Part shown: piece after piece, positions 36,001-39,000 of the stretch
Layout of the letters: every line of letters starts with the position of its first letter
Position numbering within the stretch: position 1 is the stretch's first letter
Source of the DNA: Vulcanimicrobiota bacterium
GTDB taxonomy: Bacteria > Vulcanimicrobiota > Vulcanimicrobiia > Vulcanimicrobiales > Vulcanimicrobiaceae
DNA: 64,000 nucleotides
Direction: 5' to 3'
Assembly: GCA_963833095.1 (NCBI GenBank)
Contig: CAWHWQ010000001.1
Span: forward strand, 736,001-800,000
Made by a program: the position numbers

Positions 36001-39000
36001 CCAAGAACGGATTGAGCACGACCGGCACCGCAAAGAGCAGCGGTTCATTCGCGTTAAAGATCGCCGGCACGATCGTTGCGCGCCCCACGGTGCGTAACCG
36101 CGGGACGCGCGAGAGCGCGAGCAGCGCCGCGAGCGGCAGCGTCGAACCCGCGCCGCCCGGGAAGATAAAAAGGAAGAGCGAGACGACGACGATGTGCGGC
36201 AAGGCAGTGTGATGCGCGAACGCGAGCGTGTTCTGCGCTTGCAACGTGAGATAGACCGGCGTTACCACGGCAGCGAGCAACGCCGGTCCGTGCATTCCGA
36301 TCGTCCAAAGCAGCGTCTGCACGACGACGATGACGATCAGCGCGACGTAGGTATCGCCGAGTTGTCCCAGCGGCTGGATCAGCGCCGTAAACGCGGCGGC
36401 GACCGAGACGTGCAGCGCGCGCAGTGCGAGCGCAAGAGCGACCGTGATGCCCGCACCGGCCCATGCGTTTCGCGTCACGCGCGCGCCAATGGCGACCAGT
36501 CCGCACGCAGCCATCGCGATGAACAAACCGCTTGGGCCCACGCTACGCAGATAGGTCAGCAGCGAACCGGAATACGCGGGAAGCGCCAGCAGATAGCCCA
36601 CCGTCGAGCCGGCAATGGTGGCAATTGGATCGAGCTGCGCTCGACGGGCATAAAACCACCCCAGCGTCGGAGCCAAGACGAGGCCCATGATGCCAAACGC
36701 GGGGAGGAGGCCCGCCGACACGCGTAGCCCGAGCGAGGGGCCGATCAGCGGACCGGGGACGTGAACGAACGGGACGATCACGAGAAAGGCCACGAGCAGC
36801 CCCGCGAAGCTCCAGGGTAGGGCCTCGCGCGTCGCGGCTAAGAAAGGAAGCTCGGCGACGGCTTGGAGGGCCGCGAAGCGGTTAGAGGCGGCGGACGACG
36901 GCTTCGACGCGGCCGATGATCTCGACATCGCTCGCGTAGATTGGCGCCATGCTGCGATTCTCCGGCTGAAGCCGGATTCGGCCGTCCTCGCGATAGTAGC
37001 GTTTCACGGTGGCTTCACCGTCGAGCATCGCGACCACGATTTCGCCGTCGCGCGCGACACGCTGCGGTCGCACCATGATCAGATCCCCATCGAGAATGGC
37101 CGCCTCAATCATCGAGTCGCCTTGAACGCGGAGCATGAACGCGTCCGAAATACGCGGCACGAACGATGCGGGCAACACAAACTCGCCTTCGAGATGCTCC
37201 TCGGCCAGGATGGGCGTGCCGGCGGCCACCTTGCCGACGATCGGCATGACGATGCTTTCGGGCACGGGCGAGGAGCCCAAACCCAAGTCAGAACGCAGCG
37301 CGCGGGGTTTGGTGGGGTCGCGCAGGATAAGTCCACGGCGCTCGAGCGCCTTGAGATGCGCGTGAATGGTGGATGAAGATGAAAGGCCAACACGTTCGCC
37401 GATCTCACGAACCGAAGGCGGGTACCCGCGTTCAACCGTGAAGGCGCGAATCACGTCGAGGATCCGCTGCTGTCGTTCCGTCGCTGGTTTGTCGGTCAAG
37501 GCTCCCTCCGGATTGTGCAGCGCAATGCCACCCGTATGGCATGGGTTTGCTTTACAACCCTAGCACAGGGTATTCAAAAAGGCAAACATACGTTCGGCTC
37601 ACGCTTGACAGCTCGTGGCCTCCGTGTGGTAAAATCTTGGGGACGAACAGTTGTTTGGCCCAAGATGTGGGTAAATTGGTAGTCGAACACTCGTTTGGCA
37701 CAAGATATGGAAGGGCTCTTCGACATGCTCAGGGTGACAGGGAGAAGTTCTGTGGCGACGCGCAAACGGTTCACGCTCATGCCCGCAATCGCGATTGCTT
37801 CGCTCAGTTTGATGGTGACGGTGCCGGCGCTTTCGAGCATGCATCTCTCCGCAGCAACGGCGCAGCGCTACGCGACGGTGACAGTGCAGCCCGGCGATAC
37901 GCTTTGGTCGATTGCTTCGGCACATACAACGGGAAGCGCCGACGTCCAAGAGACGATCGATCAGATCAGCGCCGCGAACCATCTCCAAGCATCGATGCTG
38001 CTTCCCGGCGAAAAGCTCCGCATCCCCGAATAAATTGTCATCCCGAGCGTAGCGCGAAGCGCGTAGTCGAGGGACTGAATCATAAAAGCCGCAGCGATGC
38101 GGCTCTTTCTTTTTATTGGCGGCGACTAACAAGAACGATTGAGTGGCCGGTGTGATCGTCCAAGAACTGCAGGCCCTCCATCATCCACGTGTCGAGCCCG
38201 TCGCCCGAATGTTTGGCGACTTCGCGTACCACATGTACCCGATCGCGCAGCCACGCAAGTTCACTTCGCGTCGTCGTGGGGAAGATCGCGACTTCGCAAT
38301 CCTCGCATTGATATCCGTATTGCATTGTCGTTTCCATGCGACGGAACAAGAAAGGGGCCCTCGCGGTTGCGAGAGCCCCTTTCCGTTCACGAACGGTTTG
38401 CGCTAAGCAGTGACGCTTAGAGTTTGACCGTTACCGTGAAGTAGGCATTGAACGGCAGGGGCAATTGCGCACCGGCCGCACCGTCAGCTGCCGGCGAACC
38501 GGTCAACGGGCGGTAGCTTTGGAACAGGAAGTTGTACGGTTGCACGCCGCCGTTGGCGACTGCATCGTACGTTGACGGGTTGCCTGCCGTCAGCTGTCCA
38601 GCTCCGTTTTGGAAGTTGGAGATGTACTCTCCGTTGGGCTCGTATCCGCAGACCGCCTGACCCGCCGGATAGGCGCTGGCCCACGCCTGCTTCGTGCCAC
38701 CAAAGCACGAGTGGAAGACGTTGGCCAAGGTCAACTGCGCGCTGATCCGCGGTGAGAGGTCATACGAGATTTGGATGTTGCCGGTCACAACGCTCGGCTC
38801 GCGGAACGCGCCGAGTGTCGCAAACGATCCCGTTTGCGGATTCGGGATATACAGGTACCCAATCGGCGAGGCCGAGGTTCCTTGCAGTGACGTGTAGTCG
38901 CACTGCTGAGGATTCGTGCCTGCCGTCACGATCGGAACGGTCGCGTTAGCCGAGTTGTTTGCACACTCGCGCGGGTCGTAACCGATAACGTCGTACGGCG

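Follow-up and report, generated by a model that had tools for sequence, protein, structure and literature searches.

This Eremiobacterota (Vulcanimicrobiota) lineage probably has a DNA-damage response of two arms, one a LexA repressor and the other a WYL activator. The proposal starts from motifs, their positions, their conservation and their co-occurrence, and from these we infer binding and promoter activity. The window analysed is a stretch of 64,000 nucleotides that carries lexA and a divergent yneA-like gene. Positions without a contig prefix refer to the window, and those prefixed C1 to C5 refer to contigs.

In the first arm, LexA would repress promoters with a CGAAC-N4-GTTYG box until RecA-ssDNA triggers LexA cleavage. 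Predicted targets are lexA, the yneA-like gene, imuA-imuB-dnaE2, g00545-mpg, nrdJ and ftsY-recA-recX, and further rpsR-rplI-lon-dnaB, mraZ/dcw and some variable repair genes. The centre of the LexA box (AGGA/AGGT) may also serve as the -35 element of a SigH-type promoter, both at ftsY-recA and, in many cases, at nrdJ. In the second arm, a homodimeric HTH-WYL-WCX activator would bind TGCCA-N6-TG(G/T)CA, which replaces the -35 element 10 nt before the -10, and would turn on recA, ssb, TM0106- and UvrD-like helicases, nucleases and some transposases. Where this site lies on the lexA leader, its effect may be reduced transcription of lexA, added expression of the yneA-like gene, or the two together.

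For a soil phylum that is widespread and for the most part uncultured, the result is a regulatory map of the DNA-damage response. A candidate WYL activator is put forward together with its site and regulon, open to in vitro tests that need no culture of the host. No LexA paper on Eremiobacterota/Vulcanimicrobiota was found, nor any on a two-arm damage response there, nor any on GAAC-type LexA-binding motifs across phyla. For three couplings proposed here the literature gave no precedent: the pairing of LexA and NrdR at a class II ribonucleotide reductase and a division inhibitor (no literature was found on an SOS box at nrdJ, or on NrdR with LexA at yneA), a LexA box that covers the SigH -35 at recA, and a WYL site located in the leader of lexA.

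The divergent lexA and yneA-like genes

The lexA gene (36882..37499, minus strand) encodes a repressor of 205 aa, which scores 228.5 bits with TIGR00498 (cut-off 111). The protein consists of a winged helix-turn-helix and an S24 peptidase domain; the Ala-Gly site and the Ser and Lys dyad are present and match solved PDB LexA structures in alignment. Its recognition helix is nearly identical to that of Bacillota LexA (alignment with Bacillota and Actinomycetota LexA). The neighbouring gene (37752..38033, plus strand) encodes a YneA-like membrane LysM protein of 93 aa (NF010723, 60.3 bits, cut-off 60), a putative SOS cell-division inhibitor, and the two genes are divergent in 38 of 38 loci. Contigs of relatives from one metatranscriptome span lexA, the intergenic region and the LysM gene; these contigs are uninformative on strand, start and level. 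No Rfam match was found at the rpsR, ftsY, lexA, ssb or nrdJ loci.

Three LexA boxes separate the genes, at 37583..37596 (box 1), 37644..37657 (box 2) and 37684..37697 (box 3). The first-pass annotation had counted three boxes here, rightly, but their sequence is CGAAC-N4-GTTTG, one base off the GTTCG that it gave. All 38 lexA/yneA-like loci have at least two boxes (2–4 per locus, control 0). Box 1, a predicted site of lexA autorepression, overlaps the putative lexA -35, TTGCCT (37580..37585, minus strand), which is separated by a 17-nt spacer from a putative extended -10, TAGGGT (37557..37562, minus strand). A putative sigma-70 promoter of the yneA-like gene, like that of lexA a reading of the sequence, extends over 37605..37635 on the plus strand, with TTGACA at 37605-37610 and an extended -10, TAAAAT, at 37630-37635; the spacer is 19 here and 17–19 in relatives.

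A matrix derived from nrdJ leaders places tandem NrdR-like boxes on either side of box 2. Box a (37627..37642) covers the yneA-like -10 and box b (37658..37673) starts 31 bp further on, so that LexA box 2 fills the 15-bp spacer of the pair; this geometry is conserved in families f1 and f2. A third NrdR-like box, c (37698..37713), scores 11.8 and overlaps the ribosome-binding site in some relatives. Scores in the window are modest, and 168 matches in the genome exceed 10. The nrdJ gene has tandem 16-bp NrdR boxes about 31–32 bp apart upstream, judged by the NrdR consensus. An nrdR gene is present, and it is not adjacent to the lexA/yneA-like pair in any Eremiobacterota locus examined. NrdR would probably co-repress nrdJ and the yneA-like gene.

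LexA boxes elsewhere and the recA unit

CGAAC-N4-GTTYG is the ordinary Gram-positive type of box, and both the LexA helix and the box match Bacillota/Actinomycetota loci, which bears out the earlier Firmicute-type assignment. Perfect boxes do lie, as had been claimed, upstream of imuA-imuB-dnaE2 (C1:144300), g00545 (C1:468789), rpsR (C1:655838), mraZ (C2:146136), nrdJ (C3:202847), an Rv2578c-like radical SAM gene (C4:236784) and an HNH ORF (C5:44908). The first-pass annotation lacks two further boxes, one upstream of a ligase-associated-exonuclease-like gene (C1:582729) and one that separates an Lrp gene from a DUF433 gene (C2:247004), and it likewise lacks the WYL-type motif, the SigH-type promoter within the LexA box and the NrdR-like boxes. 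The boxes of imuA, g00545 and the radical SAM gene are situated between -35 and -10. Three other perfect matches were not counted as sites: C1:349230 is inside a gene, and C3:88477 (a frameshifted region) and C5:592485 (before yraN) are probably coding.

The LexA-box signal is positional and not a matter of raw abundance. CGAAC-N4-GTTYG is not enriched over the whole genome (26, compared with 15–44 for other spacers), nor is the bare second palindrome, TGCCA-N6-TGGCA, above control in G000 (7 vs 5); raw counts of either are therefore not used as support. The 12 best matches to the LexA matrix, however, are all intergenic or just before a start, and a stricter pattern precedes 15 of the 2668 genes, where two control patterns precede 0 and 3. 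The strict palindrome exceeds its reversed control in 37 of 41 genomes (6–26 vs 0–17). Earlier counts of 5–11 per genome, against 0–4 for a reversed control, were not reproduced; the exact pattern behind them was not given.

Conservation was scored within 300 bp upstream, where the reversed control gives 0–1 per gene. At nrdJ the box is present in 28 of 30 loci and across three families, which upholds this gene as a regulon member. Boxes are also found at imuA (5/5 aligned loci), g00545 (4/4 aligned loci), rpsR (22/29) and mraZ (17/28, of which 16 are convincing, mostly within the window's genus). The placing of mraZ under LexA is not new: the available text of PMC3998124 describes EMSA with B. 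subtilis LexA and binding in gut Firmicutes. The rpsR box heads the unit rpsR-rplI-lon-like-dnaB, and dnaB may therefore be its actual target.

The product of g00545 has an RNase H fold (Foldseek TM 0.70–0.72, E 7e-8), and its profile found no solved relative by sequence. RNase H1 has four catalytic carboxylates in this fold. The conserved acids of g00545 are D10, D73, D79, D116 and E124, with no obvious fit to the RNase H1 pattern.

The uvrA and uvrB genes have neither a LexA box nor the second motif upstream (5 genomes, within 1.5 kb flanks). Both are frameshifted in this assembly, and a motif-regex search for repair genes missed them. The lexA-like genes of three distant families have no clear box of this type, and the claim of a LexA regulon is for this reason limited to the class. 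Within it, a regulon with a Firmicute/Actinobacteria-type box is supported.

The first-pass annotation had left recA outside the regulon, and a LexA regulon without recA is refuted. A perfect box (C1:182274) stands 41 bp ahead of ftsY, which immediately precedes recA-recX in the same orientation. A box precedes ftsY-recA or recA in 27 of 28 order-level loci and in all 40 further genomes. In 30 of these 40 it is before ftsY and in 10 directly before recA (control, 1); an eleventh match on the recA side was a chance match in coding sequence and was excluded. Counted within 300 bp, 26 of 39 loci have the ftsY box, and it is absent from G027. LexA control would extend to recA by operon read-through from ftsY.

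The opposite reading, in which LexA controls nrdJ, mraZ and rpsR, the ftsY box serves ftsY alone and recA has only its own promoter, is very unlikely. It agrees with the lack of a LexA box within 300 bp of recA in G000 and in 37 of 38 loci (in this genome the 68-bp gap before recA has none), with a promoter motif of recA's own, and with family f3, where neither ftsY nor recA has a box (0/11). Yet the box directly before recA in the 10 genomes, and also in G021, G049 and G106, goes with an ftsY that lacks one wherever ftsY is visible, and in G106, which has no WYL gene, it is 121 nt before recA.

The AGGA spacer of the ftsY box is nearly fixed, sometimes with a longer perfect inverted repeat. 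These four bases are probably at the same time the -35 element of a SigH-type promoter, which would account for the fixed spacer. SigH is encoded, above the curated TIGR02859 cut-off in 5 of 5 genomes. The trinucleotide GAA is found 11–16 nt after an AGGA-type box at 46 of 54 sites, with a peak at 12–13 and a background of 0.095; the resulting AGGA-N17/18-GAA layout is that of SigH promoters mapped in C. difficile (Table 3 of PMC7438776). A strict SigH-like promoter pattern is found only once in G000.

Perhaps the mraZ, rpsR and ftsY boxes are kept for another reason, such as promoter bases or an RNA hairpin, and are not LexA operators; we consider this extremely improbable. The near-fixed ftsY core and its occasional longer repeat would fit such a reading, as would the position of the rpsR box about 17 bp upstream of the -35 and the narrow range of the mraZ and rpsR boxes. 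But the spacers of the latter two vary while both half-sites stay. At ftsY the SigH -35 explains the fixed spacer, and in genus g20 the box has a different spacer and lies inside a sigma-70 promoter.

A second palindrome and its candidate reader

The recA promoter motif consists of TGCCA-N6-TGGCA, 10 nt and xA-N3-T. It is present in 27 of 28 order-level recA loci, compared with 0 of 10 in family f3, and in 38 of 40 further genomes; all 38 sites have A at -11 and T at -7 after a variable 10-nt spacer. It also has copies upstream of ssb (19 sites have TA), of a TM0106 nuclease-helicase gene and of IS1595 genes. In 87 order-level genomes the mean number of composite motifs per genome is 6.8, and that of the control 0.63 (0.4 vs 0.2 in f3); the pattern was drawn up partly from genomes that were later counted. 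Matches at C1:916827 and C2:301851 are inside coding sequence and were set aside. TGGCA was also considered as a sigma-54 element and was rejected on visual inspection, there being no conserved GC at the right distance. By its geometry, the motif resembles a PafBC/DriD-type promoter in which a palindrome replaces the -35.

In the window, the palindrome is at 37526..37541, between lexA and the yneA-like gene and downstream of the lexA promoter; 21 of 38 lexA loci have it, all in family f1. A putative -10, TACAAC (37553..37558, plus strand), begins 10 nt past its hexamer, faces the LysM gene and overlaps the lexA -10 on the opposite strand. In 46 distinct copies profiled, the -10 has T in 44 and A in all 46, the 10-nt spacer being variable; its last base (-7) is C in 38 copies, which is atypical.

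The best candidate for the protein that reads this palindrome is an HTH-WYL-WCX gene at C1:285141-286160 (PF13280 and PF25583). Its best solved relatives in the PDB are DriD, the closest although only distantly similar (E about 1e-12), and PafBC. In G000 it is a single WYL gene and its neighbours are unrelated; no adjacent pafB-pafC pair was found there. An orthologue is present in 82 of 84 f1 and 2 of 2 f2 genomes (84 of 86 in the order) and in 0 of 64 others, and it co-occurs with the second motif, a correspondence that amounts to about one gain and a few losses and not to independent events. G019 and G106 have neither the WYL gene nor the recA motif; in G004 (89% complete) and G143 (94%) the motif is kept and the orthologue was not detected. 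The candidate's own promoter has a degenerate site, clear only in genus g1.

A further alternative keeps the LexA arm as described and gives the second palindrome another reader, either a WYL paralogue or a repressor of the XRE type, or makes it a repressor operator, above all at lexA; this is unlikely, though less so than the alternatives above. In its favour, the lexA copy of the site is downstream of the promoter, and the opposing -10 is the atypical one. Genes of a second WYL clade are neighbours of motif clusters in f2 and in some f1 genomes. In alignment with DriD the candidate keeps five of the ssDNA-binding contacts, Y168, R178, Y192, R204 and R288, but R207 is replaced by Ala and Y240 by Met, and full DriD activity requires both of these residues (PMC10853764); DdaA likewise has Ala in place of one arginine. 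Against this, the fixed 10 nt to xA-N3-T in all 38 recA promoters is an activator layout, and genus g1 has only the candidate and a YafY-like paralogue. That paralogue is judged a less likely binder because it is found also in f3, where recA and ssb lack the motif. The candidate at C1:285141-286160 remains our choice of activator.

More tentatively, and with less than even chances, the 250-bp region that separates lexA from the yneA-like gene could be a three-input switch. The -10 of the WYL promoter overlaps that of lexA on the other strand, and damage might thereby stop LexA resynthesis and drive the division inhibitor, while NrdR boxes would tie division arrest to dNTP status. On the same reading, recA and nrdJ would be expressed from SigH promoters whose -35 is the LexA-operator centre, and IS1595 and TnpB would have adopted the WYL promoter and move during damage.

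Comparison with known systems

The LexA arm has the box type and recognition helix of Gram-positive SOS systems, and lexA divergent from a LysM division inhibitor, as in B. subtilis lexA-yneA and Corynebacterium lexA-divS. It differs in that LexA would reach recA through ftsY, or through a detached upstream box that is linked with a SigH-type promoter; that a conserved LexA box and NrdR boxes lie side by side at nrdJ; and that uvrA and uvrB are without a box (5 genomes). The SigH orthologue and the AGGA-N17/18-GAA layout are those of Bacillota SigH (Spo0H) promoters, as in the C. difficile data available from PMC7438776, whereas here the -35 would be inside a LexA operator and drive ftsY-recA; the partly accessible literature yielded no such case. 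With the NrdR regulon, tandem 16-bp boxes before nrdJ are common to both, but here a comparable pair also brackets the LexA box at the yneA-like gene, where nrdR is not adjacent.

The second arm has the hexamer-N10-tA-N3-T promoter layout of mycobacterial PafBC, whose consensus is given as tGTCgg(N10)tA(N3)T in the part of PMC8635444 consulted. There too recA (two promoters) and other repair genes are under both PafBC and LexA, according to the available portion of PMC7617703. In contrast to PafBC, the site here is a full palindrome and there is one stand-alone WYL gene, not a heterodimer. In Caulobacter crescentus (DriD) and in Moraxellaceae (DdaA) the activator is an HTH-WYL-WCX homodimer whose palindrome stands at a fixed distance from the -10, as is proposed here (for DriD sites, PMC13004042). 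Caulobacter DriD has didA under its control and also binds at the promoter of recA (PMC13004042 and PMC7617703, in the sections available); for DdaA the controlled genes are recA, ssb and that of a division inhibitor (PMC12392091, PMC13010146). The sites differ, TGCCA-N6-TGGCA here compared with CGAC-N7-GTCG and CGWCA-N5-TGWCG of DriD/DdaA, and here a site is also on the lexA leader. By analogy, the candidate may work as DriD and DdaA do, which is a likeness of type and not a claim of orthology.

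LexA boxes of the lexA–LysM locus

The lexA gene is located at 36882–37499 on the minus strand and is divergent from a YneA-like LysM gene at 37752–38033 on the plus strand. The pair is conserved in all 38 loci, which represent three families: that of the window (f1), one from the same order (f2) and one from the same class (f3). One genome, G036, enters as a single row in the f3 tallies only, and the conclusions are independent of it. The analysis was carried out entirely in silico. The closest named relatives of LexA belong to Ca. Eremiobacterota/Vulcanimicrobiota (68–95% identity), many of them labelled Baltobacteraceae, Cybelea or Tumulicola. 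The assembly of the window's genome is 81% complete, with frameshifted nrdJ, nrdR, uvrA, uvrB and rplI.

Three LexA boxes (37583, 37644 and 37684) are present between the two genes, as the first-pass annotation stated, although each reads CGAAC-N4-GTTTG and not the claimed GTTCG type. Every lexA locus (38/38) contains two to four such boxes, against 0 in the control. The recognition helix, SSSSTIH, matches that of Bacillota LexA in an alignment, and the same box is seen in the lexA loci fetched from Bacillota and Actinomycetota; the earlier designation as Firmicute-type is thus upheld, and judged by sequence the motif is of the ordinary Gram-positive type. The raw box count in the genome shows no enrichment (26 vs 15–44 for other spacers). 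The 12 best matches to the LexA matrix all lie within or adjoin promoters, a stricter pattern is found upstream of 15 of 2668 genes (controls 0 and 3), and in 37 of 41 genomes the strict palindrome is more frequent than the reversed control (f1 and f2 30/30, f3 7/11).

In f1 and f2, LexA box 2 has on either side a box that resembles the NrdR consensus; the two are spaced by 31 bp, and their scores are modest. The nrdR gene is located away from this locus, and a NrdR-like palindrome immediately upstream of it (C5:616440–616460) suggests autoregulation.

Short palindromic REP/MITE-like repeats are found 3′ of the LysM gene (38036–38075) and in its leader (37722–37745). Similar copies are at C1:182850 and C5:44950, and many leaders of relatives carry inserted copies. 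Adjoining the locus is a 1274-aa open reading frame (38417–42241, minus strand), which resembles a secreted or outer-membrane receptor.

LexA boxes upstream of recA and other genes

The window's genome has the gene order ftsY–recA with a 68-bp gap, and a perfect LexA box is situated 41 bp upstream of ftsY. Among f1 and f2 loci the box precedes ftsY in 26 of 28; that of G021 is in the ftsY–recA gap, and G027 lacks a box. It directly precedes recA in G049 and G106. The claim that recA is outside the LexA regulon is contradicted by 40 further f1 genomes, sampled from 84 and picked to span genera, all of which have a box, 30 before ftsY and 10 before recA; the same genomes show one extra match, in coding sequence, and the control one match. 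Since the box shifts between these two sites and is always upstream of recA, it most simply serves recA. None of 11 f3 recA units has a LexA box. In f3 loci (L154–L156, L323, L329) a DnaA-box-like TTATCCACA is situated roughly 44 bp upstream of ftsY, at the place that the LexA box takes in the window's order.

The spacer of the recA-unit boxes is nearly fixed as AGGA, and GAA occurs 11–16 nt downstream in 46 of 54 such boxes, with a peak at 12–13 nt (background 0.095). AGGA-N17/18-GAA is the layout of mapped C. difficile SigH promoters (Table 3 of PMC7438776), and SigH is above the curated cut-off in five of five genomes. A SigH-type −35 would explain the near-fixed spacer, and from the layout and the encoded SigH we infer that a LexA-repressed SigH-type promoter drives the recA unit. 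Counting against this, the strict SigH-like pattern was found only once in the window's genome. At nrdJ, 14 of 26 boxes have GAA at such a distance; it is seldom seen at lexA, mraZ, rpsR and imuA.

Regulon counts refer to boxes that lie up to 300 bp upstream and have no more than one mismatch, in the best 30 loci per search, leaving out loci with a cut upstream region (two for mraZ, one each for rpsR and recA). The proposal of nrdJ as a target is borne out by boxes in 28 of the 30 best loci, from three families (f1 20/21, f2 4/5, f3 4/4); these adjoin NrdR-type boxes, and their position relative to the promoter differs between loci. Boxes are also present at imuA (5/5) and at g00545 (4/4 aligned loci), as well as at the radical SAM gene in the one genome of five where this gene was found. 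At rpsR, 22 of the 29 best loci have a box, one being a chance match in coding sequence, and none is found in f2 or f3. The rpsR transcription unit runs on into rplI, a lon-like gene and dnaB. For mraZ the count is 17 of the 28 best loci, 16 of them convincing and 14 of those in the window's genus; binding of B. subtilis LexA to mraZ promoters was shown before, so LexA at mraZ is not new (PMC3998124). A ligase-associated-exonuclease-like gene, with a box in two of four, was overlooked in the original target list. In five genomes uvrA and uvrB showed neither a LexA box nor the second motif described below in their upstream regions.

The LexA-boxed gene g00545 (C1:468377–468772, minus strand; L113:3381–3773) is the first gene of an operon with a methylpurine-DNA glycosylase gene downstream. 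Its protein family is mostly from Vulcanimicrobiota, and structural modelling predicts an RNase H1-like fold (pLDDT 91, TM 0.70–0.72).

Several further features were observed. The rpsR leader (C1:655680–655800; L115; L250–L272) is long, conserved and structured-looking, and an Rfam search of it gave zero matches; rpsR is separated from rpsF-ssb across most of f1. A perfect LexA box at C2:247004 (L117) is flanked on one side by an Lrp/AsnC gene and on the other by a divergent DUF433 gene, with many stop-broken neighbours. The nrdJ of the window's genome (C3:202918–209986) is broken after 187 codons in the assembly, and a 2147-aa frame comes next. The frame is open in all 15 same-genus matches, and lengths range widely among relatives, a pattern that inteins would give.

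A second motif and a candidate WYL regulator

The gap before recA contains TG(A/C)CA-N6-TG(G/T)CA, a motif with nine matches in the window's genome, eight of them intergenic. These matches precede recA, ssb and lexA, the genes of a TM0106 nuclease-helicase and of two IS1595 transposases, and small unknown genes; in relatives the motif is also upstream of a TnpB-like gene (L175) and of genes for UvrD-like helicases and a DEDD exonuclease. It precedes recA in 27 of 28 f1–f2 loci vs 0 of 10 in f3, and ssb in 19 of 21 f1 loci vs 0 of 9 in f2–f3. Of 40 extra f1 genomes, 38 have it before recA, all 38 with A at −11 and T at −7 after a 10-nt spacer of variable sequence. Several targets are leaderless, with the start 6 nt after the −10. 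Counts of the bare palindrome TGCCA-N6-TGGCA show no enrichment relative to the control. The composite with the −10, a pattern derived from a few of the genomes counted, occurs on average 6.8 times per genome vs 0.63 for the control in 87 f1–f2 genomes, and 0.4 vs 0.2 in ten f3 genomes.

Both IS1595 transposase genes (C8:180275 and C4:270635; L318, L317) start 6 nt after the −10 of a WYL-type promoter. Mobile elements, including the TnpB-like gene, may have been linked to the response to DNA damage. In distant families (G071, G058; L426, L432, L434, L454) the variant TGACA-N6-TGTCA, with a suitably positioned −10, is found ahead of a repair radical SAM gene (TIGR03916), of a gene resembling uvrA and of a second copy of recA. 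This is probably another WYL regulon within the phylum.

One WYL gene was seen in the window's genome (C1:285141–286160). Its product is an HTH-WYL-WCX protein, the best solved relatives being DriD and PafBC. Orthologues are found in 82 of 84 f1 and both f2 genomes vs 0 of 64 others. In G019 and G106 the gene is missing and so is the motif at recA, and G004 and G143 keep the motif with no orthologue detected; this co-occurrence represents few independent events. The candidate retains five DriD ssDNA contacts, R207 and Y240 not being retained; DdaA likewise has Ala in place of one arginine (PMC12392091). A second WYL clade, of which the window's genus showed no member, adjoins clusters of the motif in f2 and in some genomes of f1. 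Its islands (L340, L341, L359, L360, L350, L351) contain one to three palindrome copies, which precede small unknown genes and a DEDD exonuclease.

A WYL-type box is also located on the lexA leader (37526–37541); 21 of the 38 lexA loci have one there, and all of these belong to f1. Toward the LysM gene, TA is found at the same 10-nt distance in 44–46 of 46 distinct copies, and the −7 base is mostly C (38/46). This −10-like element overlaps the putative lexA −10 on the opposite strand. The box may repress lexA, activate the LysM gene as a putative division inhibitor, or both. Activation of a division inhibitor is known for DriD as well as for DdaA (PMC7617703, PMC13010146).

Comparison with known systems

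In agreement with the first-pass annotation, the literature searched yielded no LexA motif for Eremiobacterota/Vulcanimicrobiota, and no LexA at nrdJ was found in it. Neither a SigH −35 inside a LexA operator of recA nor a WYL site of this type was found in the same literature; curated regulon databases or supplements could list such targets. Both arms, the LexA repressor and the proposed WYL activator, are of known kinds, and their combination is known from mycobacteria and Caulobacter. The second motif of the window's order shares the N10-tA-N3-T layout of PafBC promoters, tGTCgg(N10)tA(N3)T (PMC8635444), and its palindrome keeps a constant distance to the −10, as DriD sites do (PMC13004042).
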